Source: Candidatus Sericytochromatia bacterium (GTDB lineage Bacteria; Cyanobacteriota; Sericytochromatia; S15B-MN24; JAQBPE01). Taken from it: a DNA stretch of 64,000 nucleotides. The notes under the pieces were generated by a model that was not told the origin of the DNA, ran no database searches, and worked only from the letters and a program-made list of their open reading frames with translations. Both the position numbers and the translations under genes were made by a program. Below, piece by piece: positions 25,437-42,400 of the stretch. The DNA lies in NCBI GenBank assembly GCA_035285325.1, contig JAYKJB010000021.1, positions 18,549 through 82,548 of the forward strand, written 5' to 3'. Position 1 is the stretch's first letter; every line of letters begins with the position of its first letter.

Positions 25437-26153
25437 GTGCCGCCGGAGCCTGATTCGCGCCGACAGCGCCTGATTCATCTGGAGTCGGTGGATTCAACCA
25501 GCGCCCACTTGAAACGTTTGGCCTTGGGCGAGATCGAGACCGGCACCGCTGTCCTCGCCGATGAGCAGACGGCGGGATATGGGCAGCGCGGACGAAGTTG
25601 GGGCTCTGCCCGCCACGTCGGCATGTATCTTTCGGTGCTGGTCGATTTGCCGGCCCCCCCCACGTTACTTCCTCTGGCTGCAGGGTTGGCGGTCTGCGAG
25701 GCCCTGCGTCACTGGACCCAAGAGGTTCGCCTGAAGTGGGTCAACGACCTGGTGGCGCGTCGGGGAAAGCTGGGAGGGGTCCTGGTCGAGGTGGTGCGGG
25801 GCCGGGCGATTGTGGGCATCGGCGTGAACCTCCACACGCCCGACGTGCCCGGTGGTATCGGACTGGAGGCCTTGCACCCGGATCCCCCCTCAGCCAAACA
25901 GCTGGCAGTAGCGGTTCTCAGCGCGCTGGATGACCGGCTGCTCACCTGGGAAATGTTCGGCACCGAACGGGTGCGAAGTGACTGGTTGGCCGCGTGCGCC
26001 CACCTCGGTCACGAAGTGGAGGTGGAGGGCCTCCGCGGCCGAAGCGAGGGTCTCGGGCCCGCCGGAGAACTGCTGCTTCGGCTCGAAAATGGGCAGCACA
26101 CCGCCGTGATTTCCGGCTCCTTGCGCATGGCGGACGGGACCTATTGTGTTTAG
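25437..26153 (+). CDS. birA: Biotin--[acetyl-CoA-carboxylase] ligase, group I (no N-terminal HTH)
   Basis: 'VDSTSAHL…LADEQTAGYGQRGRSWGSARHVGMYLSVL…KWVNDLVARRGKLGGVLVE' matches the BirA catalytic core (GRGRRGR-type loop and KWPND motif). Confidence 0.85.
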   Translation: MPPEPDSRRQRLIHLESVDSTSAHLKRLALGEIETGTAVLADEQTAGYGQRGRSWGSARHVGMYLSVLVDLPAPPTLLPLAAGLAVCEALRHWTQEVRLKWVNDLVARRGKLGGVLVEVVRGRAIVGIGVNLHTPDVPGGIGLEALHPDPPSAKQLAVAVLSALDDRLLTWEMFGTERVRSDWLAACAHLGHEVEVEGLRGRSEGLGPAGELLLRLENGQHTAVISGSLRMADGTYCV

Positions 26154-27249: not shown

Positions 27250-30239
27250 ATCGGACAGGGTGGGCGCTCACCGCGACCGTACTGGCGTGGCTGGGTTTCG
27301 CACCGCAGCAGGTGGCGGCTCAGTCTGCCATCGGCCCGGATGCCCAGCGCAGCCCGGAGCCGGTTCGACCGATCGTGCCCGGCACGCCGGCGCCTGGAGT
27401 ACCGGAGTCTTCCCCGACCCCTGAGGGGCCTCGGGTCAAGGTGCGCGGTGACACCCTCTCGTTCGACCGCCAAAAGGGATTGACCCGTTTTCGCGGCAAT
27501 GTTCACGTCGAGTACGGGGCCACCTTGATCGACAGTGAAGAACTGTCGGTGGATGCCAAGGCCAAGGTGGTGTTCACGGATGCCCGCTTCACCCTCGTGC
27601 AACCGGACCCCAAGGACGCCACGCGGCGGCAGGTGATCACGGGGACCGGGCTGCGGTACAACTACGAGACCCAAGAAGCCGACGTCAAGTCGGCGAACGT
27701 GGCGGCTCCGGCGGAATTTGCCGGACAGACCGTCCACATCCGAGCGAAAGACCTGCACGGCTCCGGGCAGTCGCGCTGGGAGGCCAGTCACGCAGTCTTC
27801 AGCACCTGTGCCGAGTTGGCCGATGAGCAGGTGCCGCATTATCACGTCGAGGCCAGGCTGATCCAGTACGAGGCCGGCGAGAAGATCGTGTCCTGGGACA
27901 ACCGCGTCTACCTGAACGGTCGATACACCTTCTGGCTCCCGGTCTGGGTGATACCCCTGAAGCGGGAGCAGAACGACCTGAACATCGGCCGAAGTGAGGT
28001 GGAGGGGTTCTACCTCCGCTCGGCCTACGCCTACACGCTTCCCAGCTTGAACCAGGGGTACTGGTTGAACTCCGGACGGCTCACCGCCAACCTGTTCGAG
28101 AAAAAGCCCGTCGGGCTCGGCGTGGAGCATACCGCGACCTGGGGCTACGACGGCGCCACCTACGCCTTCTTCTATGGGCTGCTGACCCCCGATCGCAGCA
28201 ATTTTCTACCGCCGACCCAGACCCTCGGCGAAGCCGAAGCGGAACGCGCCATCAGGCAGGGCTATGCGCTGTTTGGCCTCAACGGTCAACCCTTCCAGGA
28301 CCGCCAGTGGGGCATCGAGCACAAGCAACGCTTGTTTGGCGACGTGGAACTCGACGGGCGCTTCGAAGACCACAACATCTATGACCCGATGTCCCACAAC
28401 TTCCGGGTCAACCGCCAGAGTTCGCGCGTCAGCCTGAAAGACCGCCTCGAAGGCCTCGGTCTGAATTACGACGTGGGCTATGACGGCACCCGCCAGCGAG
28501 GCAATCAGAGCAACACGGACAAGCTCTCGCAGAGCCACTCGGACCGGGCCCGGGGCAACATGAGTTTCTCCGTGCTCAACACCGACTTCAGGCTCAGTTC
28601 ACAGTTCGACCGCAATCAGCAGGTCAACCGTAGCGTGAAAGCCGTCACCCCGGAAGGGGGAGAGGCTTTGCCGGCAGGCGCGATTCCCACCTTCGAAGTG
28701 AAGGACGAACCCGGGGTGGCCAACACCAACATCACCAATGCCTTGAACGCCTCCTCCCGCCTGGGAGAGGGGACCAATGCCACCCTGAATGTGCCTTACC
28801 GGGTGCAGTTCCGGGAGTCTCCCCCCCCCACCGCCTCTCCGGCGCCCAACACGCCTGTGGCCACGCCAAGCCCGTGGGACCAGCAGGCAGAACCCCAACT
28901 TGACCTCACCCATAAGTTGAAGGGCATCGGCACCCTGCAGGTGCAGGCCCAAAAATTCCTGGACCTGACTCAGGAGGCACCAACCGTCACTCCGGTCACG
29001 GCGCCCTCCCTGACCCCCACGCAGGCGACGAGCCAGGCCGAGGAGCAGATTCGACGCTACGGAAAATTCGACAAGTTGCCGGAACTCACGCTGACGGCTG
29101 ATCCGTTCCTGAGCGAGTGGCAACCTGTCACGATGCGGGTGGGGTACGGCCGTTACTTCGAGTACGCCTCCTTCAAGCTGCCGGCCGGGCGGGTCGGCCA
29201 GCCACTGGACAAAAACTTTCCCGGCGACTACATCAACCGCTTCAATCCTGAAATCAGCCTCGGGAGTAAGTCACACGACATCGGGCTCAACAGCAAACTC
29301 GATTTCGGTGGGACCGGTTATCGTCAGTTCTTCTACAGCACGCGCGACGCGCAATACTCGATTGACCAGCGTTTGCGCCTGACCACCCAGTTTGGCGAAG
29401 GGGTCAGTTCCAATCTGAACTACACCAACAACATCACGCCGGATGTCGCGGAGCAGTTTGCCAAGGGACTCGACAAGTACGTCAACAACTCCCCCTTCAA
29501 CCTGGACCGGCTCTCCCTGTCGAAACAAACCCGTCTGACCGGCTCCCTGGACGCTGCCCGCGACCCCTGGTTCCGCTTCGCGTTCCGGGGTGGCTATGAC
29601 TACATCAACAAGCTCTACGACAACCTGAGCTCCGAGTTGACCTGGCGCACGGCTCCCTTCGGTCTGCCCCTGGGCCTTTCCCTGAACGGCCAGTACGACA
29701 TTCAGGAGAATGAAGAAGGAGGGCTGAAATTCGAGCACAAGACGCTCGACATGCCCTGGTTACCGAAGCTGCCGACCTACGGTATCGCCGGCAAGTGGTT
29801 GCCCATGCAAGGGACGTTGACCTTGCGCTCCACCCCGGAAATATTTGGCGGGGCTTACGGGGCCGACAAGATCGAGCCCGGTTGGCAGATCGACAGCCAG
29901 CTGGCCTACGATTTCGACAAGGGGCTCTGGCAGAGTCTGGTCAATCGCCTGTATATGACCTTCGGCAATCACTGGACCAACCACGTGCAATTCGTGCTGG
30001 GCGGTTATTACGACCTGACGGAAAAGCAATACAAGTTTTCCCAGATCGGCATCACCAAAGACCTCCACGACTTCGTCCTGACGGCTCAGTACGACCGTCT
30101 GGCCAGTTTTTATTCCGTGTCCCTCACGATGCTGGCCTTCCCGTCTCAACCGCTCAACTTCACCAGTAACACCTTCGATCGCCGTTCAGGTGCTGGCGGA
30201 GCCGCATTCGGTGCGATGCCGAGCCTGCCAGGATTCTGA
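27231..30239 (+). CDS. lptD: LptD/OstA-like outer-membrane LPS-assembly protein
   Basis: Signal peptide 'WALTATVLAWLGFAPQQVAAQS'. OstA N-terminal jellyroll 'VRGDTLSFDRQKGLTRFRGNVHVEYGATLIDSEELSVD…' is followed by an Asn/Tyr/Gly/Phe-rich beta-barrel of about 750 aa. It sits next to the LptF/G-family gene. The GTG start at 27231 was chosen, and the track ORF starts at 27186. Confidence 0.65.
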   Translation: MADRPLNRTGWALTATVLAWLGFAPQQVAAQSAIGPDAQRSPEPVRPIVPGTPAPGVPESSPTPEGPRVKVRGDTLSFDRQKGLTRFRGNVHVEYGATLIDSEELSVDAKAKVVFTDARFTLVQPDPKDATRRQVITGTGLRYNYETQEADVKSANVAAPAEFAGQTVHIRAKDLHGSGQSRWEASHAVFSTCAELADEQVPHYHVEARLIQYEAGEKIVSWDNRVYLNGRYTFWLPVWVIPLKREQNDLNIGRSEVEGFYLRSAYAYTLPSLNQGYWLNSGRLTANLFEKKPVGLGVEHTATWGYDGATYAFFYGLLTPDRSNFLPPTQTLGEAEAERAIRQGYALFGLNGQPFQDRQWGIEHKQRLFGDVELDGRFEDHNIYDPMSHNFRVNRQSSRVSLKDRLEGLGLNYDVGYDGTRQRGNQSNTDKLSQSHSDRARGNMSFSVLNTDFRLSSQFDRNQQVNRSVKAVTPEGGEALPAGAIPTFEVKDEPGVANTNITNALNASSRLGEGTNATLNVPYRVQFRESPPPTASPAPNTPVATPSPWDQQAEPQLDLTHKLKGIGTLQVQAQKFLDLTQEAPTVTPVTAPSLTPTQATSQAEEQIRRYGKFDKLPELTLTADPFLSEWQPVTMRVGYGRYFEYASFKLPAGRVGQPLDKNFPGDYINRFNPEISLGSKSHDIGLNSKLDFGGTGYRQFFYSTRDAQYSIDQRLRLTTQFGEGVSSNLNYTNNITPDVAEQFAKGLDKYVNNSPFNLDRLSLSKQTRLTGSLDAARDPWFRFAFRGGYDYINKLYDNLSSELTWRTAPFGLPLGLSLNGQYDIQENEEGGLKFEHKTLDMPWLPKLPTYGIAGKWLPMQGTLTLRSTPEIFGGAYGADKIEPGWQIDSQLAYDFDKGLWQSLVNRLYMTFGNHWTNHVQFVLGGYYDLTEKQYKFSQIGITKDLHDFVLTAQYDRLASFYSVSLTMLAFPSQPLNFTSNTFDRRSGAGGAAFGAMPSLPGF

Positions 30240-30257: not shown

Positions 30258-31103
30258 GTGTCCCTTCCATCCTGCCTCCAGCGAGTTCCCGGTGACAGCC
30301 ACTTCCGCCGTTTTCCAGGGCCAGGCGGTCTACCGGCGCTCATCGCGTGTTTGGGGGCCGCCCTGCTGGCAGCCCCTGGTTGCGCTTACAACGCGACCGG
30401 TCTGGCCCCACCCAAGATGCTGATCGCGGAATTCAGCGTGGAGGGCGATCGCCTGGTGCCCTCCCCGAACTGGGCTTACTACCTGGTCATCGACACGAAC
30501 GGCAATCCCGAAGACGCTCCCCTGGTGAACGGCCCGGCTCCGCTCCAGTTTCCCTATCCAGACCCGCGAGCGTACCTTCCCTTCGTCCGCGACGAGCGTT
30601 CCATCTTGGACCGCGAACCCGTGGCCGTGCCCAATTCGGTGTGGTCCACCTACTTCGCCCTCTATGAGGAAGCAGGCCAGTTCGTCCTCTGGCAGGGACG
30701 ACCGAACGCCGACGGCACCATCAACGAGCGCGATCGCCAGTTGCAGCAGGGACGAGAGTGGACGATCAAAGACAACAAAACGCTGCAACTGACCTTGCCT
30801 TTCACCCTGATCCGGGAACCCGGCAAACCCTCAGACTTCGAGGACCCTCCCCAATGGGAAGCCAATCTGGCCGTGGCCCTGCGCGGCAATGCGCGCTGGT
30901 CTCGCGATTTCGTGATTGATCGCTGGGGCCAGGTCCAGAATTTCTCGTTTCCAATCCTGACGCGCCCGATCAACCAGACCCTCTATGACACCGTGGGGGG
31001 CGTCCGTTTCCCGCAAAACCTGCCGGCCGGGGTGGAGGCGCCGAACATGAACATCGTGTCGTTCACCTACCGGGTGGTTTCGGAAGCCGCTCCGCGTCGC
31101 TGA
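30258..31103 (+). CDS. Hypothetical lipoprotein
   Basis: Lipobox 'LLAAPGC' after a basic n-region. No known domain. Confidence 0.55.
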   Translation: MSLPSCLQRVPGDSHFRRFPGPGGLPALIACLGAALLAAPGCAYNATGLAPPKMLIAEFSVEGDRLVPSPNWAYYLVIDTNGNPEDAPLVNGPAPLQFPYPDPRAYLPFVRDERSILDREPVAVPNSVWSTYFALYEEAGQFVLWQGRPNADGTINERDRQLQQGREWTIKDNKTLQLTLPFTLIREPGKPSDFEDPPQWEANLAVALRGNARWSRDFVIDRWGQVQNFSFPILTRPINQTLYDTVGGVRFPQNLPAGVEAPNMNIVSFTYRVVSEAAPRR

Positions 31104-31136: not shown

Positions 31137-31307
31137 AGTCGCAGAACAGAATCCTCTCCCTCAATTGGAGGGGGTCCTGTAAGATCCACTTTGAAAACGA
31201 GCGGCATTCATGTCAGCACCCGTGTCATCGTGGCCTGTCACCATGAACCTCGTTGCGACCCGGCACCGCCGACGAGGTGGTCCACCAAGAACCCCAGGAG
31301 GAATCCC

Positions 31308-32543
31308 GTGTTCAAACAACTTCCACTGATGGGTGCGATGCTCGCGGCATCGCTCACGCTCTCCACGCTGGCTGGTTGCCAGACCCCCGCCACGCCGTCC
31401 ACCGACGCCAAGACGGGAAGCGCCAGTTCGTCGCCCTCGACGGCCAAGCCGTCCACGCCGGCCGCGAACACCACCGCGCCGGCCACCTCCGGGACAGCGA
31501 CCACAGGCGCTGCCGCCGAGACCAAGCCGGGCACCAACGCGCCCGCAGCCGCGCCGAAGGCCGTGGCGGACGCCGGCACCGAGCTGGCCTCCGCGCTGAG
31601 CGCCGAACGCGAAGCGGAAGACCTGGTGTTGCTGGCTGACGAGGGTGAGGCCGCCAAGTACCGCGTTCTCGTGGTGGGCGCTGAGAAGCCCAAGGAAGGC
31701 CAGGTCGGCATCACCGGTATGCTCGACGACGTCAAGGACAAAGCCGCTGCCGCCAAGGACAAGCCAGAACTGGTCAAGGCTGCGATGGCCGGCGCCGCCC
31801 TGGCGCGCCATCAGCAGCGCGTGGCGGACCTGCGTAAGGCCGCTTTCAAGGCCAAGTTGAAGGCCGACGTCAAGGCCAAGATGGACCAACGTCTCGAAGC
31901 CCGCAAGGCGTCAGCCAAGCCACGCCTGGAGAAAATGGCCGACGCCCGTGGCAAGATGAAGGAAGCGGTCAAGGCGGCTAAATGGGTGGACAATGGAGAT
32001 GGTACGGAAACCACCAGTGTCACCATCGACACCAATCGCACCGCGAATGGCAAGAGCATGGCCGGTAAGCGGACCATGGAGCGGACCCGTCGCATCGAGG
32101 ACAAGGTGCTGACCAGCGTGGTCGCCACCTTCTCGCACACGGGCCCGCAAGGCGGCAGCTACACCATGAACCGCAGCAAGACCCTGCAGGAAGATGGCAG
32201 CTACAAGGTCGTCTTCCACGCCGAAATGGCCCTGCCGAACGGCAAGACCCGGGTCACCGATTGGGAGAAGACCATCTCGGCAGACGGCGCCGTGAGCGGC
32301 ACCGGCACTCTGGTGGTCAAGAAGGGCGAAGAAACCCTCAAGACCATCAACCTGACGCTCAGCGGCAGCGAGAAGAAGGAAGTCGCCAAGGCCGAAGACG
32401 GCAAGGAGACGGCCGAAGTCACCCTGCCCGAGGAAGGTGCGCCGACGGCCGTCGTGACCGACGCCGCGGGCAAGACGGAAGCGGTGACCATCGAAGCCGC
32501 CTCAGACGGCACCGTGGTGCCGGCTGAAACCTCCGCGGTCTAG
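31308..32543 (+). CDS. Ala/Lys-rich low-complexity lipoprotein (histone H1-like repeats)
   Basis: The GTG at 31308 follows an AGGAGG RBS. Lipobox 'LSTLAGC'. There is a long KAAAK/AKLKADVKAK repeat region and a C-terminal Thr/Val-rich beta segment. Confidence 0.55.
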   Translation: MFKQLPLMGAMLAASLTLSTLAGCQTPATPSTDAKTGSASSSPSTAKPSTPAANTTAPATSGTATTGAAAETKPGTNAPAAAPKAVADAGTELASALSAEREAEDLVLLADEGEAAKYRVLVVGAEKPKEGQVGITGMLDDVKDKAAAAKDKPELVKAAMAGAALARHQQRVADLRKAAFKAKLKADVKAKMDQRLEARKASAKPRLEKMADARGKMKEAVKAAKWVDNGDGTETTSVTIDTNRTANGKSMAGKRTMERTRRIEDKVLTSVVATFSHTGPQGGSYTMNRSKTLQEDGSYKVVFHAEMALPNGKTRVTDWEKTISADGAVSGTGTLVVKKGEETLKTINLTLSGSEKKEVAKAEDGKETAEVTLPEEGAPTAVVTDAAGKTEAVTIEAASDGTVVPAETSAV

Positions 32544-32564: not shown

Positions 32565-32602
32565 GAGGGTCGTTCCTCCCGGAACGGCCCTCTTCCTCTT
32601 TT
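32565..32602 (+). terminator. Rho-independent terminator
   Basis: GAGGGTCGTTCC, a TCCC loop, then GGAACGGCCCTC followed by TTCCTCTTTT. This is a 12-bp stem with one G-U pair, 22 nt after the stop at 32543. Confidence 0.55.
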
Positions 32603-32817
32603 CAGGGTCAGGCCAGGGCGAGCGCACCTTGTGGCAAAGTCACCTTCTCCGGGAGCATGGGGGAACCTGACCGAGGCCACAAGTCCTCACAAGTGCTTGC
32701 TGTCTGGGAGATGGGTATGCTGTGGCGGGAGGCTTACGCCCCGGCAGGTTCGAGGAAAGGACACACGCCTTGCGATATCATCCCGGCAGGAGCCAAGCAC
32801 TCCGCACCTGCGTCCTG

Positions 32818-34074
32818 ATGGTTGGCCTGACCGCCCCGATGCTGGGTTGTCAGAGCTCCCCCGTGGGCGCGGCGTCGAATTCAGAGGCTGGAGCAGTCCG
32901 TGAAGCGGTCGTCTTCTGGCAGCCCACCGCGACCTCCCAGCAGCGTCAGGCGCTACGCACGGCTCTACCGCCGGCCCAGTCGGTCCCCCTGACCCCCCAC
33001 GCCGAACTCTGGCTGGCGCCCCCAGGAACCTTCCAACAGGTTCGCCAGTCGTCGCTCGTGCGCGGTGTGGAACCCAACCAACGGCGTTCGCTGCTCCCCC
33101 CCCCGGCCTCGCCCGGACTGGCCTTTCGCTTGCAGGCAAGCCCCCCACTCTCCCAGTGGCACCTGAGTCGAGCTCGTTTCCCCCAGGCCTGGGCGGCCTC
33201 TCGGGGCAAAGGGGTGACCGTGGCCGTGATCGACTCGGGGGTGGATCCGAACCATCCTGATCTCAAGGCCAACCTGCTCCCACTGATTGACGAGGTCACC
33301 GCCATGGGGCGGAAAGACGTGATCGACGGCAAAAACTTCGACGGGATGGACAGCCATGGTCACGGCACCCACGTCAGTGGTCTGATCGCTGCTGTGACCC
33401 GTCCCGACGGGTCGATTTCGGGCGGAGCGCCTGAGAGCAAGATCCTGCCCGTCAAGGTGACGCCCCTGAGTGGCGAGACGGATGACGCCACCATCGCCAA
33501 AGGCATCCGTGATGCGGTCGACCAGGGAGCACGCGTGCTGAATCTGTCGATCGGCGGTCCCGAACCCAGTCCCATCCTTCTGGAGGCGCTGAACTATGCC
33601 ATTCTCAAGGGGGCGCTCCCGGTGATTGCGGCCGGCAACGATGGCGGCCGGGTCAATTTTCCAGCCGCCTACCCAGGCGTGGTGGCGGTCGGCTCCATCA
33701 CCGACTCCGGCAAGGTGGCCGATTATTCCTGCCGAGGAGAGGGGCTGGTCATCGTGGCTCCCGGGGGAGGGCAGACCGGTGGCCGAGAGGGCAGCCCCTT
33801 GCTCTCCACGATGCCGACCTACCCGGCCTTCGGTTCGAGCAGTGCGCGCGCCGGCAATGGCACCGGCACCCTCGCCGGCACCTCCATGGCCGCCCCACTG
33901 GTATCGGCCGCGGCGGCGCTCGTGATGGCCCGCTTCCCCGAGCTATCGGCCCCCCAAGTCAGAACCCGCTTGGCCGCCACCGCCAATGAGGGACAGGCGC
34001 AACGCTGGGAAGCCAACACTGGCTTCGGTGCCTTGAACGCCGAGGCCGCCGTCACGGAACGAACGGACCAATAA
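32818..34074 (+). CDS. Subtilisin-like serine protease (peptidase S8)
   Basis: The catalytic triad motifs are present: 'VAVIDSGVD', 'HGTHVSGLIAA' and 'GTSMAAPLVSAAAAL'. The ATG at 32818 is preceded by a signal-like 'MVGLTAPMLGC'. Confidence 0.85.
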   Translation: MVGLTAPMLGCQSSPVGAASNSEAGAVREAVVFWQPTATSQQRQALRTALPPAQSVPLTPHAELWLAPPGTFQQVRQSSLVRGVEPNQRRSLLPPPASPGLAFRLQASPPLSQWHLSRARFPQAWAASRGKGVTVAVIDSGVDPNHPDLKANLLPLIDEVTAMGRKDVIDGKNFDGMDSHGHGTHVSGLIAAVTRPDGSISGGAPESKILPVKVTPLSGETDDATIAKGIRDAVDQGARVLNLSIGGPEPSPILLEALNYAILKGALPVIAAGNDGGRVNFPAAYPGVVAVGSITDSGKVADYSCRGEGLVIVAPGGGQTGGREGSPLLSTMPTYPAFGSSSARAGNGTGTLAGTSMAAPLVSAAAALVMARFPELSAPQVRTRLAATANEGQAQRWEANTGFGALNAEAAVTERTDQ

Positions 34075-34150
34075 GGTGCGCTCGCCTGGGTATAATGCGA
34101 GCGCTGGAAGCGTCCGCCGTTGGTTGCTTCGGCGGAGCATCGCTCCCACG

Positions 34151-35572
34151 ATGAACAGGTTCTGCGTGTCCGTTCGCCCCAAGACCTCTGCCGCGCGGCC
34201 CGTGCCGCTGACCCCCACGGCCCGACTCCTGCTGGGCGGCCTGTGGGCACTGGCAACGGTCCAATCGTGTACGTTTCCGGACACCCGGCCCTCTCCGATC
34301 GTCTGGCCCACGCCGACGTCCCCGGCGCCCAGCGTGGCCGCGCTAGAGCCGCTTCGCCCGTCCCAACCGGTCGCCCCGGTCTACGCGGACCTGGGCTTCG
34401 AGGTACACGGGGGCGGGTTGCTGATCGATGTCCGTGCTGCCGGCAAGCCCGTGGAAGGGGCCTGGGTCCGCCTGCTCGGGCCTTCCCTGGCGGCCGGTGG
34501 CACGAAAGCGAACGGACAATTGACGCTCTCGCCCATCCTGCCGGGCAGCGATTACAGGCTTTGGATCACCACGCCGGGGCTGCAAACCGTCATCTCGAAC
34601 CCTTTCACCTTGAAAGCCAACAGCACGGACACTTTGACGCAGCGGTTCGAACTGAAAGCGGCGGGACGCCTGCGGGGGCGAGTCGTGGCTGATGGGCAAG
34701 GGGTGGCAGGCGCGGTGGTCAGTGACGGACTCAACAGCGCCGTCTCCGACCCCACGGGCGAATACGAACTGCCCGGCGTCGCGCCAGGGCAGGTGCGGCT
34801 CACCGCGAGCAAGCCCCGCTTTCAGCTCGCCAACCAGACCATCGCCGTCAGCGCAACCGTCCCGGCGGTGGCGGACTTCAGCCTGTCTCCCGCCCCGGCG
34901 ACCCTCACGCTGGACACGAGTTTGGCAGCCAATGAGACGCAGCGTCTGGCTTGGAATGATCGGTTTCGGGGGTTGAGCCGGCAACTGGCGGCGAGTGGCT
35001 GGACCATCAAGGAGGCCCCTGCGGAACCGGCCACGGTCTGGGTCCTGGCGGGCGTGGCACGCGACCTGACCCGCCAGGAGATCGAACGTCTGACCGACTT
35101 TGTGTCGCAAGGCGGCAAGCTGATTGTGCTGGGGGAATGGGGAGGAAGTGCAGGTTTCCGCACGTCAGCCGCCAATACCCTGCTGCACGGACTGGGCGCT
35201 CATCTGGCCCCTGATCTGGTCCGCGACTTCGTCAATCCCAAGAATCCCAACTGGATCACCGTGCAGCGCTTCCTGAGCTCGCATCCCAGCGTGGCCGAAG
35301 TTCGCTCCTGGCGTGTATACGGTGCCAGTTCGGTGTTTGGGCTATGGCCGCTCCAATCGTTGGCCGAAACCTCCAAAGACGCGTTCCGGCTGCAATCGTC
35401 CTCTCAAACGGCCTCGCAATCGCTCCTGGTGGGTGGTCCCTTCAAGGCCGGCAAGGTGATTGTGGTGGGGGATACCTCCTGCTTCACGGATGAAGACAGC
35501 GACCGGGATGGACAACCCAACCTCGCTGACGGCGACAATTTCCGTCTGGTTGAACGCCTCTTGTCCTGGTAA
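34151..35572 (+). CDS. Secreted hypothetical protein with carboxypeptidase-regulatory-like beta-sandwich and C-terminal DUF4350/GATase-like domain
   Basis: Signal 'ARLLLGGLWALATVQSC'. 'GRVVADGQGVAGAVVSDGL…TGEYELPGVAPGQVRLTASKPRF' matches the CarboxypepD_reg pattern. The C-terminal 'LIVLGEWGGS…VVGDTSCFTDED' is flavodoxin-like. Confidence 0.5.
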   Translation: MNRFCVSVRPKTSAARPVPLTPTARLLLGGLWALATVQSCTFPDTRPSPIVWPTPTSPAPSVAALEPLRPSQPVAPVYADLGFEVHGGGLLIDVRAAGKPVEGAWVRLLGPSLAAGGTKANGQLTLSPILPGSDYRLWITTPGLQTVISNPFTLKANSTDTLTQRFELKAAGRLRGRVVADGQGVAGAVVSDGLNSAVSDPTGEYELPGVAPGQVRLTASKPRFQLANQTIAVSATVPAVADFSLSPAPATLTLDTSLAANETQRLAWNDRFRGLSRQLAASGWTIKEAPAEPATVWVLAGVARDLTRQEIERLTDFVSQGGKLIVLGEWGGSAGFRTSAANTLLHGLGAHLAPDLVRDFVNPKNPNWITVQRFLSSHPSVAEVRSWRVYGASSVFGLWPLQSLAETSKDAFRLQSSSQTASQSLLVGGPFKAGKVIVVGDTSCFTDEDSDRDGQPNLADGDNFRLVERLLSW

Positions 35573-35593
35573 TTTGCCGTGCGCGCAATTTAG

Positions 35594-38188
35594 GTGATGC
35601 CGATGCCCCCCGTCATTTATTGTCCTGAATGCGACGCCGAGAATGAGGCCAAAAGCCTCGTCTGCCTGGCCTGTGGTCACGCGTTCAAGGGTGATCCGAC
35701 GGCCCTGCTGTTCTCCCACGCCACGGCTCCTACCCACGCCCCCCCGCCCCCGGTGGCCTCGCCCGCCACCGATCACCCCGTCGGCAGTGGCCTGCTGCCA
35801 GCTGACAGCGTGCTGCAGAACCGCTACCGCATCACGCAGCTGCTGGGGCAGGGGGGCATGGGAGCGGTCTATCTGGCCAGCGATGCGCGCTTCTCTTCCC
35901 GGACCTGCGTGATCAAGGAAATGCTGGACCATTTCAACGATCCGGAACAGCGGGCGCAGGCCACCGAAAGCTTTCACCGCGAAGCCGATTTACTGGCCAC
36001 CTTCAAACATCCGGGTATCCCGGAAGTCTACGATCGTTTCACCGAGGCCAACCGACACTATCTGGTGATGGAATACATCAACGGGGTGGATCTAGAGCAA
36101 CGCTTGCTCGACAACGGGCTCCCTTTCACGGAGAAGGAGGTCATCGATTGGTCGATTCAATGTTGTGACGTGCTGTCCTACCTGCACCACCAGAACCCTC
36201 CCATCATCTACCGCGACATGAAGCCCGCCAATATCATCACGACCCATTGGGGCAAGGCGTACCTGGTGGACTTCGGCATTGCGAGGTTTTTCAATCCCGT
36301 GACCCGCGGCACGATGATTGGCACCCAAGGGTATGCCCCGCCCGAGCAGTATCGGGGACAGGTGGACCCCCGCTCGGACATTTACGCCTTGGGCGCCACC
36401 ATGCACTACCTCCTGACCGGACGCGACCCTCAAAACGAGGCGCCCTTCAGCTTCCCGCCCGTCAGCACCTTGAACGCTTCGGTGTCGCCTGAGATGGAGA
36501 TGCTGATTCTCAAGGCGCTTGATCCGGAGCCGGACAATCGCTTTGCCAGCGCGGATGAAATGCTGGGGCAGTTGATGGCCATCGGTGGGGATGAAACCAA
36601 TTTCGTCCGCGATTGCCCCCATTGCGGACACCGCTCCTCAGTGACCAGGCAGTTCTGCCCGAACTGCAAGCAATACATTTCGAAAAAGGCCCACGTGCTC
36701 AAGCCGCAAGACGGCACGGGCACGATCATGACCGACGCAGCGGGATACCATCAGGTCAAGGCGGCAGGGCGCACCGCAGGCCTGGTGGCTGGCAACCGCT
36801 CCGCCACCGCCACCGTGCTGGCCGTTCCCACCGGTCGGGTCGATTTCTCGCTGCGACGCGTGTCGCCGCTGGCCCTCGGCGCCGTCCTGACCGCCGGCCT
36901 CGCCCTGTCTGGCTGGCTGAGCTGGCAATGGTGGAACTCTCGCCCCGAGCCCATCACGAGCGAGGGCCAGACCTGTTTTATGCCGGGAGACCGTCCAGCC
37001 AAGGCAGAGGGCCAGGCGGCCTTTGCCCGCGGCCAGTTCGTTCAGGCGGTCGATGCCTACAGGCGTGCCATCGAGCAGACACCTGCGGATGGCGAAGCCC
37101 GCATTTACCTGCAAAATGCTCACGTGCGCCTGGCCAAGGCGGATAGCGTGAAGGTGGCGATCGCCGGGGCATTCTCCGGACAGCGCTCTCCTCTCGCGCA
37201 GGACATGCTGAGAGGGGCCGCTTTGGCCCAGCAACAGGCCAACGCCAGGGGACGTCTTCCCAAGATTCAACTGACCTTGCTGGACGATGCTGGGTCGACC
37301 TTGCGGGCGCTGGAAGGGGCCGATCTGGTCAGCCACGACCCAAGCCTGGTAGGTGTTTTGGGGCATCTCGGCACCCAGACGACCCAGGCGGCCTTGAAGC
37401 GTTACGCTGACGGCGGTGTTCCCGTCATCACGCTGGTGCCGGGCTCCTGGGACGCCCTGGATGCTCCCAAAGCCTTGGTGCGGTTTGCCGGTGGGGAAGC
37501 AGACTGGGCAGCGGCTTGGATCGACCAGGCCAAGCGGGTGTGGCGGGCCGACAAGGTAATCCTGCTCGAGTCGGGTGACGAGCGGAGCGGACGCAGCGCA
37601 ATGGGAACCCATGTGAGTCGCTGGGCCGTCGAAAAGGGCCTGGGGTATGAGACGGTGAGTTGGGAAGCACAGAATTCAGCGAGCATTCTCAGCCAGCTCA
37701 AGCCCCAGGCGAAGACGGTGCTGTTGTGGGCCGGCAATCTGGAGGACGCCGTGAGAATCAAATCAGACCTCGCGAGTGCAGGAAGCAAGGCCCCTCTGCT
37801 GGCGGGCCCGCTCGCTTACCAGCCTGAACGGTTGGCCGGGCTGGGGGCGGCGGCCGAAGGCCTCACGTGCCTGGTCCCTTACGCCGTGGACCACCGAATG
37901 GCCGGTTCCAGCGATTACGAAATGGAGTTTCGCAATCGCTTCCAGACCGAGCCGGGCTGGATGGCCTCCCTCACCTACGATGCCCTGGCCTACCTCGTCC
38001 AGGCCCTCGACCGAGTGGGGCCCCATCGTGACGCGCTGGGCAATGCCTTGCTCAGTTTGGGGCAGAACGGTCACCGAGGGCTGATAGGCCCCTTGCATCT
38101 CAATCGCGATGGCGAAGCCCGGCGTCCTATGGAACTATTCGAAGTTCGTTCGGGACGCTACACTTCCCTGCGCCTGACCGGAATGTGA
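35594..38188 (+). CDS. Ser/Thr protein kinase with N-terminal and juxtamembrane zinc ribbons, one TM, and periplasmic type-1 (LivJ-like) solute-binding sensor domain
   Basis: The kinase looks active: 'LGQGGMGAVYLA', 'CVIKEM', 'YRDMKPANI', 'DFGIAR' and 'GTQGYAPPE'. The zinc ribbons are 'CPECDAENEAKSLVCLACGH' and 'CPHCGHRSSVTRQFCPNCKQ'. A TM segment 'LALGAVLTAGLALSGWL' precedes a Peripla_BP_6-like domain of about 400 aa with a TPR. Confidence 0.9.
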   Translation: MMPMPPVIYCPECDAENEAKSLVCLACGHAFKGDPTALLFSHATAPTHAPPPPVASPATDHPVGSGLLPADSVLQNRYRITQLLGQGGMGAVYLASDARFSSRTCVIKEMLDHFNDPEQRAQATESFHREADLLATFKHPGIPEVYDRFTEANRHYLVMEYINGVDLEQRLLDNGLPFTEKEVIDWSIQCCDVLSYLHHQNPPIIYRDMKPANIITTHWGKAYLVDFGIARFFNPVTRGTMIGTQGYAPPEQYRGQVDPRSDIYALGATMHYLLTGRDPQNEAPFSFPPVSTLNASVSPEMEMLILKALDPEPDNRFASADEMLGQLMAIGGDETNFVRDCPHCGHRSSVTRQFCPNCKQYISKKAHVLKPQDGTGTIMTDAAGYHQVKAAGRTAGLVAGNRSATATVLAVPTGRVDFSLRRVSPLALGAVLTAGLALSGWLSWQWWNSRPEPITSEGQTCFMPGDRPAKAEGQAAFARGQFVQAVDAYRRAIEQTPADGEARIYLQNAHVRLAKADSVKVAIAGAFSGQRSPLAQDMLRGAALAQQQANARGRLPKIQLTLLDDAGSTLRALEGADLVSHDPSLVGVLGHLGTQTTQAALKRYADGGVPVITLVPGSWDALDAPKALVRFAGGEADWAAAWIDQAKRVWRADKVILLESGDERSGRSAMGTHVSRWAVEKGLGYETVSWEAQNSASILSQLKPQAKTVLLWAGNLEDAVRIKSDLASAGSKAPLLAGPLAYQPERLAGLGAAAEGLTCLVPYAVDHRMAGSSDYEMEFRNRFQTEPGWMASLTYDALAYLVQALDRVGPHRDALGNALLSLGQNGHRGLIGPLHLNRDGEARRPMELFEVRSGRYTSLRLTGM

Positions 38189-38206
38189 ACGCCGTGCGCC
38201 TTCCCG

Positions 38207-39874
38207 TTGCAAGCCATCAAAGGACGGAATGCCATGCTTGTTGACCAACTCCAGCCGCTTGATGCGGGCGCGATGCTGGCGGATCGCTATCGGGTCGAAC
38301 GTTTTCTGGAATTCAAGCACGGTTCGAACATGTACCGGGCGATCGACACGGTCACCAACTACGTGGTGATCGTGAAGGAACAGCCGGACGCGATGAAAGC
38401 CTTCACGCAACTACAGGGCGGAGAGTGGGCAGAGCAAAGTGCCGGGAATCCCTATCAGGGTGAGTTCCTGATTCTGCGCTCGGTCAGCTATCCCACGGTC
38501 GTGAAGGCTCTGGACATCTTCAAGAACGAGGGACGGGCCTACCTGATCATCGAGCAATTGGAAGGCCGGGATCTGGGCTACTACATGACCCAGAATCAGG
38601 TGACGGTGCAGCAATCGCTGGAATGGATGATTCAGCTCTGTCAATCGATCAGCCAGCTTCATCGAAGGCAGATACTCCACCTTGACCTTCACCCGCGCTG
38701 CATCGTCGTGGCGCCTGACAATCAGCGGGTGCGCCTGACGGGTTTCCACCGCGCCGTCGTCCTGCCCTTGGCCGCGGAGGCCACCATCGGGGCCACTGCG
38801 GGCTACTCGAGCCCTGAGCAGATGGGAATCTACGAACTGCCCATCGATGCTCGCTCGGATATCTACTCGCTGGGAGCCATCTGGTTTCAGTTGCTGACGG
38901 GTACCAATCCCGCCGACCTCGTGGAGGCCGAGTGGGGCACACTATTTCCGGCGGTGAGTGAGTCTTTGGTGGCGCTGCATCCACAGATCGCGCGGATTGT
39001 CACCAAGATGCTGGAGTCCGACCCCGAGCGTCGTTACGAATCCATCAACGATCTGAAAAACGAATTACTGGAACTGATCAACAACCCGTTGCGGCGAACC
39101 GGCCACTATTCCGATGTCGGCATGGTGCGCGAGGGCAACGAAGACGCCGTGGGACTGCGCGACATTGAATTCGTCAACCTTTCTCGCCAGCGCGGCCTGG
39201 GCCTCTATGTCGTGGCCGATGGCATGGGCGGCGTCAATGCCGGCGAGGTGGCGTCCTCGATCGCCATCGAAGAGTCCTTGGCGACGTTGGAGCAGGAACT
39301 GCCGTTTTCCCGTCTGGAACACGCGATCGATCCCAGTGAGATGATCCAAGCCGCCCTGACAACCGCCATCAAACGAGCCAATCTTCGCATTTACGAAACC
39401 GGTCGGGGAGATGAACGCCTTTCCGGCATGGGCACAACCCTGACGATTGGCGTCGTGTTCGGCCAGATCCTGTATGTGGGCCACGTGGGGGATAGCCGAG
39501 CCTATGTGATCAATCGCTGGGGCATCGAAAAAGTCAGCCGAGACCACTCGCTGGTCGGGCGCCTGGTCGAGATTGGTCAGATCACCGAGGAGGAAGCCCT
39601 CGTGCATCCTCAGCGCAACCTGATTTACCGGGCGCTGGGTACCTATCCGAACGTGGAAGTGGATACGTATCAACGATCCCTGAAACTGGGTGACTGGGTG
39701 CTGCTTTGCAGTGATGGGCTGACTGGACACCTCAAGGACCCGGAACTACAATCTATCGTTTCCGAACACAGCGATCCGCAACTGGCTGCTCAACATCTCG
39801 TGAATCTGGCGAATTTGCGCGGAGGGGAAGATAACATCTCCGTGGTGCTCGTCAATCTTGCCGAATACACCTGA
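38207..39874 (+). CDS. Pseudokinase-PP2C fusion: kinase-like N-domain lacking the DFG Asp, plus active PP2C Ser/Thr phosphatase
   Basis: The kinase-like region has 'YVVIVKE', a catalytic loop 'LHLDLHPRCIVV' where K has become H and N has become C, and 'LTGFHRA' in place of DFG. The PP2C part has 'LYVVADGMGG', 'VGDSRAYV', 'LLCSDGLTGH' and 'GGEDNISVVLV'. Confidence 0.85.
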   Translation: MQAIKGRNAMLVDQLQPLDAGAMLADRYRVERFLEFKHGSNMYRAIDTVTNYVVIVKEQPDAMKAFTQLQGGEWAEQSAGNPYQGEFLILRSVSYPTVVKALDIFKNEGRAYLIIEQLEGRDLGYYMTQNQVTVQQSLEWMIQLCQSISQLHRRQILHLDLHPRCIVVAPDNQRVRLTGFHRAVVLPLAAEATIGATAGYSSPEQMGIYELPIDARSDIYSLGAIWFQLLTGTNPADLVEAEWGTLFPAVSESLVALHPQIARIVTKMLESDPERRYESINDLKNELLELINNPLRRTGHYSDVGMVREGNEDAVGLRDIEFVNLSRQRGLGLYVVADGMGGVNAGEVASSIAIEESLATLEQELPFSRLEHAIDPSEMIQAALTTAIKRANLRIYETGRGDERLSGMGTTLTIGVVFGQILYVGHVGDSRAYVINRWGIEKVSRDHSLVGRLVEIGQITEEEALVHPQRNLIYRALGTYPNVEVDTYQRSLKLGDWVLLCSDGLTGHLKDPELQSIVSEHSDPQLAAQHLVNLANLRGGEDNISVVLVNLAEYT

Positions 39875-39924
39875 CCGTTTTTGAACCACAGAAACGCCCT
39901 TGCCCAAGAAAGGACGCGCCATCC

Positions 39925-40392
39925 ATGATCGTCTGTCCCAACTGCCACGCTGAAAACAAAGACGGCGTCAGTTACTGCGACGAATGCGGCACAAAACTGG
40001 AAGATGCCGTGAAACCAGCCCAGGTGGCCGCTGCGGAGATGTCGACCGGAGAAATGGGCCCGCCCGCCCAGCTGGTGATCACGCGCGGCGGAACGGTGGG
40101 CCGGGAGTTCCCACTGGAACAACGGGGGGAAACCCACATTGGCCGTTGGGATCCGGATGGTGGCGCATTTCCGGAAGTGGACCTGACCCAAGATGATCCC
40201 GAAGCCAAGATTTCCCGCAAGCATGCGCGAATCTTCTTCCGAGGCGGCGCCTATCACCTCGAAGACGTGGGGTCTCTGAATGGCACCTTTGTGAATCGGG
40301 GTTCCCGCTTGATGCCCGGCTCGCCGCAAGAGCTCAGAAATGGGGACGAACTGCTGTTGGGCAAAACGTTCTTCCGCTTCCAGTTGACCTGA
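39925..40392 (+). CDS. FHA-domain protein with N-terminal zinc ribbon
   Basis: 'CPNCHAENKDGVSYCDECG' is a zinc ribbon. The FHA core is 'THIGRW…ISRKHARIFFRGGAYHLEDVGSLNGTFVNRGSRL…GDELLLGKTFFRF'. Confidence 0.85.
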   Translation: MIVCPNCHAENKDGVSYCDECGTKLEDAVKPAQVAAAEMSTGEMGPPAQLVITRGGTVGREFPLEQRGETHIGRWDPDGGAFPEVDLTQDDPEAKISRKHARIFFRGGAYHLEDVGSLNGTFVNRGSRLMPGSPQELRNGDELLLGKTFFRFQLT

Positions 40393-40422
40393 CGGCGGCC
40401 CTCGCCGGACGTTGAAGGGGAA

Positions 40423-40454
40423 GGCCTCCGCTGCGCGCCGGCGGAGGCCTTTCT
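40423..40454 (+). terminator. Rho-independent terminator after the FHA gene
   Basis: GGCCTCCGC, a 9-nt loop, then GCGGAGGCC followed by TTTCT, 30 nt after the stop. Confidence 0.6.
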
Positions 40455-40476
40455 ACCAGAAGTTGGGTTCGCCCCC

Positions 40477-40504
40477 TTGAATCTGTCTACCATTCCTGTA
40501 TACT
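40477..40504 (+). promoter_or_regulatory. Sigma70-type promoter (TTGAAT, 16 nt, TATACT) for the HTH-TPR gene
   Basis: -35 at 40477-40482 and -10 at 40499-40504, 37 nt upstream of the ATG at 40542. Confidence 0.45.
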
Positions 40505-40541
40505 GAAAACACACCGCGCTTTCAGTCACGGGAGAGAGGCC

Positions 40542-41678
40542 ATGTCAGAACCCAATCCCAGCTTCGGCCAGATGATTGCGGAAGGCATGCGGCTTAAAGG
40601 CCTGGATTACCGAACGCTCGGCAAGCTGATCGGGGTCTCTCACGGCTATCTGTGGCAGATGGTGAGTGCCGACAAGCGCGCCATCAACGACCCCGGACTG
40701 AAACGCAAGCGACCGAGTGAAGCCGTCGTCAGGCAGCTGGCCGAAACGCTGGAACTGGACCCGAAGGCCATGTTGCGAGCGGCCGGCCACGACGTGGACG
40801 GCATTGACTTGACCATTTCCGGCCCGACCCGTTACACCCCCTATCCCGTCACGGCGCGTCAGCTTTACCAGGATGGGGTTCAGGCCGCGGCCAAGGGCCA
40901 CGCCGACCGTGCCGTGGCCCTGCTGGAAGCAGCCCTTCAGCAGGGGGGTGTCTCCGTCGTCAATGTGCACGCGGGGCTGGGAATGGCCCATTTCCAGGCG
41001 GGCCGCTACGAGGAGGCCATCGGGGAATTCGACGCCTGTCTGAACACCTCCGCAGAGGATCGCGAGGGGGCCATCGCAACGGCCGACCTGCATTACAATC
41101 GCGGCCTGGCGCATCAACGCCGGGCCCGTCAGGCCCAAGGGGAGGCTCAGCGGGCCCACCGCATCCGAGCGGGGGCGGACTTTCGGCGCGCCATCGCCCT
41201 CGAAGGAGACAGCCAGGACCTCTATTACTCGGCGCTCTGTTACATGTGCCTGGAGCGAAATCAGGCGCGGCGCGTGCTGGTCTACGGCAGCGATTTCCTC
41301 CACCGTCAAACCACAGGACATACCCGCCACACCACCGCCGCCTTGGACATCCACCTGTTCATGGCCTACGCGCACGTTTCCATCGGCGGCGGCGTTGCCC
41401 CCGCGCACGCCATCGCCATGGTCGACATCACCCTGCAACTGTGTGACACCTACTGGTTCGCTCACTTCGTCAAATCGGCGCTTCTGGCGACTCGGACAGC
41501 GGGACACGCCCGCCGACGCCAGGCGTGCCTGGAGGCGGGATTGTTCCACGTGCGTCGGGCGATCCAACTGCACCCCCCGGCTCGGGACCATTACCAGCGC
41601 GAATTGCAAGGCGACTTCGTGAACTGGCAAGCGGAGCCAGCCTTTACCCGGTTACTGACAGCTGAGGAGGCCACCTGA
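40542..41678 (+). CDS. XRE-type HTH plus TPR-repeat regulator
   Basis: The N-terminal 'GLDYRTLGKLIGVSHGYLWQMVSADKR' is an HTH. Several TPR units follow ('YQDGVQAAAKGHADRAVALLEAALQQ', 'HFQAGRYEEAIGEFDACL'). Confidence 0.75.
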   Translation: MSEPNPSFGQMIAEGMRLKGLDYRTLGKLIGVSHGYLWQMVSADKRAINDPGLKRKRPSEAVVRQLAETLELDPKAMLRAAGHDVDGIDLTISGPTRYTPYPVTARQLYQDGVQAAAKGHADRAVALLEAALQQGGVSVVNVHAGLGMAHFQAGRYEEAIGEFDACLNTSAEDREGAIATADLHYNRGLAHQRRARQAQGEAQRAHRIRAGADFRRAIALEGDSQDLYYSALCYMCLERNQARRVLVYGSDFLHRQTTGHTRHTTAALDIHLFMAYAHVSIGGGVAPAHAIAMVDITLQLCDTYWFAHFVKSALLATRTAGHARRRQACLEAGLFHVRRAIQLHPPARDHYQRELQGDFVNWQAEPAFTRLLTAEEAT

Positions 41679-42400
41679 TGTTGCACCGAATCCTGAAGCC
41701 GGTCCAGGCCTCCCTGACCCTGCTGATCGCCATGAGTCTGGGGGGGTGCCTCCTGCCGCAACCCGATACCCCGATCGTCCCCCCCTTGCTCGGAGGCCTC
41801 AAAGGGGCCCCGATGGCAGCGGCCCCGCCACTCGCGAAACGGCCTGACCTGAGCACCAAGGAACCCCTGAAACAGGAAAACACGCCGCTCACAGCCGGCC
41901 CACTCACCGACGGACCTCTGACAGCCGCGGGCCCGGCCCTGAGTGCCCCTCTGCCCTCAGCCGCCGCCTCCGCAGCCCCCATTCCCACGGCGGGAGACCT
42001 CGCAGCCAGCGTGGGCTCCCTCGAACCTCCGGCCGCTCCCGCCGCGACGATGGGGTCGGTCCGCGCGGAGGGAGCCGCCCAGCGCGCGTCCGAAACCGTT
42101 TCGGCCGATGAGTTGGTCGCCTCGCAAGCCGCTACCATCACGGCAGAATGGCCAACCGGTCTTGGTGTCGGCCTGGTGGAGCTCCGGGCCATCGCGACCG
42201 ATCGGCCGTGGTCATTCTCCAACGGTCAGACTCAGCGCGTACCGGCAGGAGACTACCGAGTCTCGGCCAACCGCGACAAGGTGAGGCTGGAGTCGGATGA
42301 AAACCTGCGCCTGAAGGCGGGAACGGCCAAGCGAATTCGTCTCAGCATCGCCTCTGAGACCCTCCAATTCACGGTAGAGGAGCTTTCCCCAGCGCCGTGA
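41678..42400 (+). CDS. Hypothetical lipoprotein (Ala/Pro-rich linker plus small C-terminal beta domain)
   Basis: Its start overlaps the HTH-TPR stop in an ATGA arrangement. Lipobox 'AMSLGGC'. No known domain. Confidence 0.55.
   Translation: MLHRILKPVQASLTLLIAMSLGGCLLPQPDTPIVPPLLGGLKGAPMAAAPPLAKRPDLSTKEPLKQENTPLTAGPLTDGPLTAAGPALSAPLPSAAASAAPIPTAGDLAASVGSLEPPAAPAATMGSVRAEGAAQRASETVSADELVASQAATITAEWPTGLGVGLVELRAIATDRPWSFSNGQTQRVPAGDYRVSANRDKVRLESDENLRLKAGTAKRIRLSIASETLQFTVEELSPAP

Follow-up and report, generated by a model that had tools for sequence, protein, structure and literature searches.

A degenerate kinase domain fused to a PP2C phosphatase beside an active-looking receptor Ser/Thr kinase in Candidatus Sericytochromatia

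The closest described systems to the gene considered here are the bacterial pairs of a Hanks-type Ser/Thr kinase and a PP2C phosphatase represented by Stk1/Stp1, PrkC/PrpC, PknB/PstP and IreK/IreP. The phosphatases of these pairs are either single-domain proteins of about 245 residues or consist of a PP2C domain and a transmembrane segment, and their kinases carry PASTA repeats. A gene of this general kind is found in a 64,000-nucleotide stretch of a Candidatus Sericytochromatia genome (assembly GCA_035285325.1, contig JAYKJB010000021.1, positions 18,549 to 82,548 of the forward strand), hereafter the window, in whose own numbering all positions are given. Its product joins an N-terminal kinase fold, in which several catalytic motifs are degraded, to a C-terminal PP2C domain. 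In common with the known pairs, the PP2C domain scores above the cutoff of the NCBIfam model NF033484, adopts the same fold and is encoded beside a co-oriented membrane receptor Ser/Thr kinase. The differences are the additional 288-residue pseudokinase at the N-terminus, the gene order (kinase, then phosphatase) and the partner kinase itself, in which Zn ribbons and a Peripla_BP_6 sensor take the place of the PASTA repeats of the known kinases.

Proteins with this combination of domains have already been catalogued. In a recent survey of bacterial PP2Cs, Pkinase is among the eight commonest accessory domains, and Zn-ribbon/DZR domains are also noted (PLoS One 2025, PMC12088040). According to the same survey, kinase-bearing PP2Cs are mainly from Pseudomonadota and might both phosphorylate and dephosphorylate; their kinase catalytic residues are not analysed, and the word 'pseudokinase' is absent from the text (PMC12088040). 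The family of the window protein shares the Pfam-level architecture of these proteins, but its kinase domain is degenerate in every member examined, and it is specific to Sericytochromatia and accompanied by an active kinase encoded separately. Bacterial pseudokinases, in turn, have been sorted into seven families (ActPs1-3, DLHK, GLW, CP1 and DYD), in all of which the VAIK Lys is substituted; they are combined with MviN, COG3899/GAF/PAS, DEAD-like helicase/DNA2 or transmembrane segments, and PP2C is unmentioned in either text (bioRxiv 10.1101/2025.01.12.632604; PMC12599244). A conserved bacterial Hanks fold with degraded motifs is common to these families and to the window family which, like DLHK, keeps the HxD Asp and has lost the DFG Asp. 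Going by the published descriptions, however, the window family matches none of the seven, as it keeps the VAIK Lys in most members, has PP2C as its partner and comes from Sericytochromatia. The data behind the published families may under-sample metagenome-assembled genomes (MAGs) of this lineage.

Fusions of comparable logic occur further afield. In plant KAPP, where an FHA 'kinase-interaction' domain precedes PP2C, and in the RsbT-RsbU system of B. subtilis, the PP2C domain follows a non-catalytic domain that binds a kinase, and this kinase thereby recruits or activates the phosphatase. Docking relies on an FHA domain in KAPP and on the N-domain in RsbU, neither of which is a kinase fold, and the FHA domain of the window belongs to a different protein, encoded next door. 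Trypanosomatid 'kinatases' combine a dual-specificity phosphatase with two pseudokinase domains and leucine-rich repeats, and they have been proposed to act in regulation or as scaffolds (PMC2175518). They share with the window protein the fusion of a phosphatase to degenerate kinase domains, but they are eukaryotic, their phosphatase is Cys-based and not a PP2C, and they have lost the HRD Asp that the window protein keeps. In a literature search that was incomplete, we found no description of a bacterial pseudokinase-PP2C family or of its pairing with a kinase. What seems new is the pseudokinase character together with the conserved kinase pairing, Pkinase-PP2C proteins as such being already catalogued and presumed bifunctional.

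The mechanically called open reading frame, on the + strand, opens with a TTG at 38207 and spans 555 residues. The likelier start is the ATG at 38234, giving a protein of 546 residues: an AAGGA element lies about 8 nucleotides 5′ of this codon, and the closest orthologues, P0002 and P0005, start at the corresponding Met, so that the TTG is probably not the true start. Residue numbers are nevertheless counted from the TTG throughout. Pfam recognizes Pkinase (PF00069; 83.4 bits against a cutoff of 31.7, E-value 2.2e-23, residues 61-278) and, in the C-terminal half, PP2C (PF00481; 46.6 bits, cutoff 20.3, residues 326-544) and PF13672 (39.3 bits, cutoff 24), and the NCBIfam equivalog model NF033484 (Stp1_PP2C_phos) is matched with 253.3 bits, over its cutoff of 230. 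The Pfam scan of the fusion protein gave no match to RsbU_N, and the SpoIIE score (PF07228) of 21 bits is under the cutoff of 25 and confined to the PP2C core. None of the NCBIfam models covers the whole fusion; PRK14559, a 642-residue Zn-ribbon phosphatase, was rejected as a home for it, since it matches the window protein and its distant relatives alike through the PP2C part only.

An AlphaFold2 model, computed from an alignment of 74 family sequences, has a mean pLDDT (predicted local distance difference test) of 92.4 and a pTM (predicted template-modelling score) of 0.84. In Foldseek searches, its N-terminal half resembles Stk1, PknB and DAPK1 (TM-scores 0.74-0.77), and its C-terminal half Stp1, PstP and tPphA (2pk0, 1txo, 2cm1, 5f1m, 2xzv; 0.84-0.90, target-normalised). 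Only about four residues separate the last kinase helix from the first PP2C strand in the model. A pTM of 0.84 in a two-domain chain of 546 residues speaks for a defined inter-domain orientation, not for beads on a string, and the model implies that pseudokinase and PP2C would be packed rigidly in a fixed mutual arrangement.

The residues of the kinase half were called by alignment to solved kinases (StkP, Hsl1 and a LanL-type kinase) and to the active kinase encoded upstream, with strand positions taken from the AlphaFold2 model; matches of the N-domain to kinases in the PDB reach E-values down to 6e-17. The beta3 Lys of the VAIK motif is kept as Lys57 (VIVK-E) and the alphaC Glu as Glu86, while the HRD motif reads H158-L159-D160, with its Asp retained. 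Lost are the catalytic-loop Lys (His162), the Mg-binding Asn of the same loop (Cys165), the glycines of the GxGxxG loop (E35-x-K37-x-x-S40) and the Mg-binding Asp of the DFG motif, which is replaced by G179-F180-H181 after beta8 in the model. No acidic residue is present near the DFG position of the window protein. In other words, among the three residues by which an active kinase is recognized (VAIK Lys, HRD Asp and DFG Asp) the Lys and the first Asp are present but the DFG Asp is a Gly, and because of this replacement the N-domain is a pseudokinase by the standard sequence definition; it probably lacks kinase activity. The initial annotation, made from the sequence alone, had already proposed that the N-terminal 290 residues or so form a kinase fold, that the VIVK Lys and the HLD Asp are kept and that the Lys and Asn of the catalytic loop HLDLHPRC are missing, all of which agrees with the alignments and the model. 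It was also right about the absence of the DFG Asp, although its reading of the motif as TGF was one residue out of register: the Thr precedes the motif, and GFH occupies the DFG position. As a side observation, an Arg four residues after the catalytic Asp (D+4; HLDLxPR, 38678-38701) could compensate for the missing catalytic-loop Lys; its position is that of the catalytic-loop Arg of tyrosine kinases (HRDLAARN).

The catalytic site of the PP2C half is intact. In an alignment with S. aureus Stp1, its metal ligands and phosphate-binding Arg are matched by R308, D313, D338-G339, D429, D503 and D542-N543, all of them invariant in the family, in line with the metal-binding motifs that had been recognized from the beginning, and the domain is 33-36% identical to the solved Stp1 and PstP. 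This half should be an active Mn2+/Mg2+-dependent pSer/pThr phosphatase. The single-domain layout typical of Stp1 and PrpC is not that of the window protein, whose PP2C domain follows the N-terminal kinase fold within one long chain.

The losses of the kinase half are shared by the whole family. About 90 database clusters, at 47-81% identity and 536-564 residues in length, have the Pkinase-PP2C architecture; most come from Candidatus Sericytochromatia MAGs and, where their sources name them, they are called 'Stp1/IreP family PP2C-type Ser/Thr phosphatase'. Residues were counted over the window protein and 91 clusters, i.e., 92 sequences, 89 of which cover the region of the glycine-rich loop, beta3 and alphaC. 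The DFG Asp is replaced by Gly in 92/92. At the catalytic-loop Lys position there is no Lys in any of the 92 sequences, 88 of them having Gln (63), Asn (14) or His (11), and Asn is equally absent from its own position (0/92; Tyr 60, Cys 21, Val 5, others 6). The first glycine of the glycine-rich loop is Glu, and the second Lys or Arg, in all 89 sequences. Conservation of what is retained is just as marked, with the HxD Asp in 92/92, the beta3 Lys in 85/89, the alphaC Glu in 86/89 and the D+4 Arg in 89/92; the beta3 Lys and the alphaC Glu are both missing from P0080, P0084 and P0086. The DFG+2 position is variable (His 44, Asp 30 and Ser 14 of 92). Rescue by a shifted DFG Asp was considered and rejected: an Asp is found at DFG+2 in 30/92 relatives, but the window protein and its clade have His there. 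A shifted DFG Asp, a non-kinase N-terminal domain and a common annotated family (for example of RsbU type) with a different N-domain had each been named at the outset as findings that would speak against the proposal, and none of them was borne out. Forty-seven positions of the pseudokinase are invariant in a 17-sequence alignment, and the domain is 48-77% identical over 39 loci from species-representative genomes. Such family-wide conservation of residues places the pseudokinase domain under purifying selection, and the active site appears to be re-modelled, neither canonical nor randomly decayed.

The family is compact, lineage-specific and confined to Sericytochromatia. A profile of the pseudokinase alone, run against one genome per GTDB species, found the 39 loci just mentioned, all of them in Sericytochromatia-type MAGs, including Tanganyikabacteria and Blackallbacteria; the next matches, at 31% identity or less, are generic kinases. 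Two of these loci, L011 (DATNPP010000646.1, 'Oscillatoriaceae cyanobacterium', 71%) and L020 (DATNQJ010000408.1, 'Stenomitos sp.', 60%), are on third-party annotation (TPA) soil MAGs; the locus is of Sericytochromatia type, its synteny is the same, and the taxonomic labels of these MAGs may be incorrect. When the domain was compared with 1.84 billion representatives clustered at 50% identity, a search that shows its isolation and is no census of the architecture, one close relative was found (P0077, 49%). The other representatives among the matches listed are mostly generic kinases at 35% identity or less, the exception being P0248, a 139-residue fragment of the family.

Synteny was followed by tblastn of the window proteins against the 39 orthologous loci, and an orthologous Ser/Thr kinase domain is encoded directly upstream of the fusion in 37/37 loci with upstream DNA, in strong support of the link to the adjacent active kinase that the initial annotation had drawn. 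The kinase domain is 62-93% identical to that of the window, and the upstream kinase is in this respect better conserved than the pseudokinase. In the 39 loci the PP2C domain is always fused to the pseudokinase. The kinase and fusion genes overlap by 4 nucleotides in loci L001 and L005, and in the window a gap of 45 nucleotides separates the end of the kinase gene from the ATG at 38234. The partner kinase has intact motifs (GQGGMG, VIK, YRDMKPAN and DFG); its kinase domain is followed by a weakly hydrophobic segment and then, in the clade of the window, by TPR and Peripla_BP_6 sensor domains. The gene immediately downstream of the fusion, which encodes a Zn-ribbon and FHA protein, is kept in 23/39 loci. 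The features of the locus are collected in Table 1.

Table 1. Positions in the window of the fusion gene, its domains and motifs, and its neighbours.
Feature	Positions	Strand	Remarks
Pseudokinase-PP2C fusion gene	38234..39874	+	546 residues; stop codon 39872-39874
N-terminal pseudokinase domain	38234..39097	+	About 288 residues, Hanks-type fold; Pfam Pkinase, PDB alignments, AlphaFold2/Foldseek
Degenerate glycine-rich loop FLEFKHGSNMYR	38303..38338	+	G1 is Glu, G2 is Lys/Arg in the family
beta3 strand VIVKE	38366..38380	+	Lys57
Catalytic loop HLDLHPRC	38678..38701	+	Asp160 kept, Lys to His162, Arg164 at D+4, Asn to Cys165
GFH at the DFG position	38741..38749	+	Gly179 replaces Asp
C-terminal PP2C (PPM) domain	39098..39871	+	Stp1/IreP type; Pfam, NCBIfam, PDB alignment, Foldseek
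NEDA	39137-39148	+	PP2C metal-binding motif
ADGMGG	39215-39232	+	PP2C metal-binding motif
VGDSR	39485-39499	+	PP2C metal-binding motif
SDGLT	39710-39724	+	PP2C metal-binding motif
GGEDN	39821-39835	+	PP2C metal-binding motif
Partner kinase, active-looking receptor Ser/Thr kinase	35594..38188	+	Two CxxC Zn ribbons, intact kinase motifs, sensor domains
Zn-ribbon and FHA protein	39925..40392	+	Immediately downstream of the fusion
TPR protein	40542..41678	+	N-terminus helix-turn-helix-like by eye only
Peptidase_S8 gene	32722-34074	+	Precedes the kinase
CarboxypepD_reg/DUF4350 gene	34076-35572	+	Precedes the kinase

On balance it appears probable, without being secure, that the fusion is the cognate PP2C phosphatase of the adjacent upstream receptor kinase, and that the pseudokinase, attached rigidly to the PP2C, serves for docking and/or regulation. 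As the same active kinase adjoins it in 37/37 loci, the fusion is probably a dedicated off-switch of that kinase. Hanks kinases dimerise through their catalytic domains, and in the most economical version of this mechanism, heterodimerisation, the pseudokinase would pair with the kinase domain of the upstream kinase just as Hanks kinases pair with one another. Such a physical docking, on the kinase or on its substrates, would place the phosphatase at the phosphorylated activation loop or juxtamembrane region of the kinase and could also bring it to phospho-proteins held by the neighbouring FHA protein; both the upstream kinase and the FHA-held phospho-proteins would then be its likely substrates, and their dephosphorylation would reset the signal. 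Several observations weigh against this interpretation. The FHA gene is missing from about 40% of the orthologous loci, and P0062 (locus L003), a single member of the family, is flanked by no kinase gene and no FHA gene. The pseudokinase is 28% identical to the neighbouring kinase, no closer than to unrelated kinases, and thus bears no sequence signature of a dedicated pairing. Finally, Lys57, Glu86, Asp160 and Arg164 are conserved although a pure scaffold has no obvious need of them, which hints at nucleotide binding or residual catalysis.

A different role for the same domain is suggested by its rigid attachment. N-terminal regulatory domains that control bacterial PP2Cs are well established, for example in RsbU, which is activated by RsbT. 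The pseudokinase might mainly control the PP2C of its own chain, as an allosteric regulator or a sensor in the manner of the N-domains of RsbU and SpoIIE; it could be a nucleotide-binding switch or a phospho-acceptor for the upstream kinase, and such a switch could co-exist with docking. The pTM and the short linker suggest that the two domains are rigidly packed, a pocket for a ligand is hinted at by the Lys-Glu pair that is kept, and P0062 keeps the fusion without an adjoining kinase. However, that one orthologous kinase is almost always next to the fusion speaks for a role directed at this kinase, and neither an RsbU_N signal nor a SpoIIE score above cutoff is present. Regulation of this kind as the main function, though possible, is on the whole unlikely. 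The retained residues could also mean that the N-domain is an atypical active kinase, which transfers phosphate or binds ATP without Mg2+ in the manner of CASK and makes the protein a bifunctional kinase/phosphatase acting in the same pathway. CASK is active and cation-independent (PMC4718504), and kinase-bearing PP2Cs were assumed to be bifunctional in the 2025 survey (PMC12088040). Both proteins have Cys for the catalytic-loop Asn and Gly for the DFG Asp, and both retain the beta3 Lys and the catalytic Asp (HLDLHPRC/GFH in the window protein; HRDVKPHC/GFG in CASK). These CASK-like changes of the Mg ligands, together with the conservation of Lys57, Glu86, Asp160 and the D+4 Arg, make 'catalytically dead', the wording of the initial annotation, an overstatement that is not safe, even though the motif losses behind it stand.

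The resemblance to CASK has its limits, though. The catalytic-loop Lys and an intact glycine-rich loop, present in CASK, are both gone from the window family, and an intact glycine-rich loop and the beta3 Lys, both found in CASK, are described as the best predictors of activity (PMC4718504). The Cys is not conserved in the window family, where Tyr is commonest; this variability at the Asn position and at DFG+2 is unlike a tuned alternative catalytic site, and three members lack even the beta3 Lys and the alphaC Glu. CASK has no phosphatase fusion, and the likeness, at only 25% identity, is convergent. An active kinase is for these reasons rather improbable. There remains the suspicion of an assembly or frameshift artefact, or of a kinase pseudogene joined by accident to a phosphatase, to which the only pointer is the lower GC content of the gene (0.584 against 0.63-0.68). 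A single open reading frame of the same length recurs in the database clusters and in the 39 species-representative genomes, from independent assemblies, the pseudokinase has its 47 invariant positions and a fold predicted with high confidence, and the GC content at third codon positions (GC3) is only mildly lower; an artefact or a decaying remnant is effectively refuted by these data and its probability is negligible.

Bolder proposals go beyond the reading of the fusion as a cognate phosphatase with a docking and/or regulatory module. The N-domain might be a cation-independent, CASK-like kinase or an ATP sensor, and the protein, as a 'paradoxical' kinase/phosphatase in one chain, might adjust how far the adjacent receptor kinase or FHA pathway is phosphorylated; or, more generally, degenerate-kinase-PP2C fusions might be a widespread bacterial device in which a kinase-fold domain heterodimerises with its cognate Hanks kinase and provides each kinase with a private eraser. 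We regard proposals of this kind as speculative and quite improbable. If true, the private-eraser device would correspond, in bacteria, to the pairs that pseudokinases form with kinases in eukaryotes.

More distant relatives indicate that the architecture is not limited to the window family. Proteins P0092-P0120 have a kinase fold and a PP2C domain in the same order, at 30-38% identity and with 539-700 residues, and their kinase motifs are all degenerate (e.g., LND-ICP-xS and TGLD). In fact, all 120 best database clusters have Pkinase and PP2C in this order with degenerate kinase motifs and, with Pkinase so common among the accessory domains of bacterial PP2Cs, the early remark that such an arrangement is uncommon was overstated. 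Four distant fusions whose loci were looked up are in clusters of the type vWA-FHA-[fusion]-STPK(-FHA) or ZnR-STPK-[fusion], where STPK is a Ser/Thr protein kinase and ZnR a Zn ribbon, in other lineages; judging from these clusters, the fusion stands where a kinase/FHA/phosphatase module usually has a plain PP2C. In pairwise BLAST, the pseudokinase of the window is 25-32% identical to those of other fusions and equally so to active kinases, and the window family and the distant fusions may or may not descend from one ancestral fusion. In one case (L086, JGI 3300077104), a vWA-FHA-[pseudokinase-PP2C]-STPK cluster is beside resolvase, phage-integrase, PemK-toxin and ParA-like genes, and on account of these neighbours some vWA-FHA-fusion-STPK modules may travel on mobile elements.

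Further features of the neighbourhood are recurrent. CxxC...CxxC Zn ribbons are encoded at 35621-35674 and 36614-36667 in the kinase gene and at 39934-39987 in the FHA gene, and many of the distant relatives carry a Zn ribbon at the N-terminus of the pseudokinase-PP2C protein itself; these ribbons may mark the proteins of the module in common, for assembly or for localisation. The TPR gene lies downstream in the closest clade only (L008-L010 and L012; also L007), and its membership of the module is uncertain. A 361-residue antisense open reading frame (40545-41630, - strand), almost exactly over the TPR gene, is probably an artefact of high GC content. The pair of Peptidase_S8 and CarboxypepD_reg/DUF4350 genes is found 5′ of the kinase in about 17 of the 39 loci, which suggests a secreted protease system controlled by the kinase module; L005, L020, L021 and L044 are loci of this kind, and in several loci the pair is tandemly duplicated. 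P0062, by comparison, is encoded on a contig of 5.18 Mb (ENA ERZ21878443 contig_1; 49% identity) and flanked by genes for a major facilitator superfamily (MFS) transporter and for rubredoxin/desulfoferrodoxin.

A terminator-like hairpin on the + strand (32565-32592; 12-bp stem with 8 GC pairs and a T-rich tail) follows a 450-residue open reading frame (31191-32543) and precedes the Peptidase_S8 gene. No terminator-like site was found on the + strand between 32592 and 42928, and for this reason the genes from 32722 to 42400 may form one long operon; this weak evidence is compatible with a single transcription unit starting after the hairpin. Further upstream (26146-30239), the window has an LptF/LptG permease gene and a gene for a 1017-residue protein with a weak LptD_N match only, syntenic in L007, and neither Pfam nor PADLOC recognizes the two open reading frames that follow, 30258-31103 and 31191-32543. 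A role in anti-phage defence was rejected, as PADLOC gave only generic kinase-domain hits (PD-T4-6, MkoA and mad6) and the locus is in syntenic chromosomal DNA beside the Lpt genes. The GC content dips locally between 38001 and 40400, the FHA gene having a value of 0.598. Horizontal transfer was rejected as its cause, since GC3 is only slightly lower (0.717 in the fusion gene and 0.69-0.72 in the genes of the dip, against about 0.76 in their neighbours); the dip is probably due to the amino-acid composition of the proteins and not to a recent transfer.

Few pseudokinases are known from bacteria, hardly any of them characterised, and none of the seven families of the recent atlases is described as joined to a phosphatase. 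The window family corrects both the naming of such proteins, from the PP2C model only, as 'Stp1/IreP phosphatase' and the presumption that kinase-bearing PP2Cs are bifunctional. In addition, with its conserved Lys-Glu-Asp-Arg set in a site that lacks both Mg ligands, the family lends itself to testing whether a prokaryotic kinase fold can bind nucleotides in a non-canonical way. Since Sericytochromatia are uncultured, the immediate value of the finding is biochemical and structural rather than physiological. The window family appears to belong to a larger and uncharacterised group of proteins in which a degenerate kinase is fused to PP2C. To the practical question of how bacterial PP2Cs find the right kinase among many, a pseudokinase-bearing phosphatase always beside one active kinase offers a testable answer, namely, that specificity would be achieved by kinase-fold pairing.

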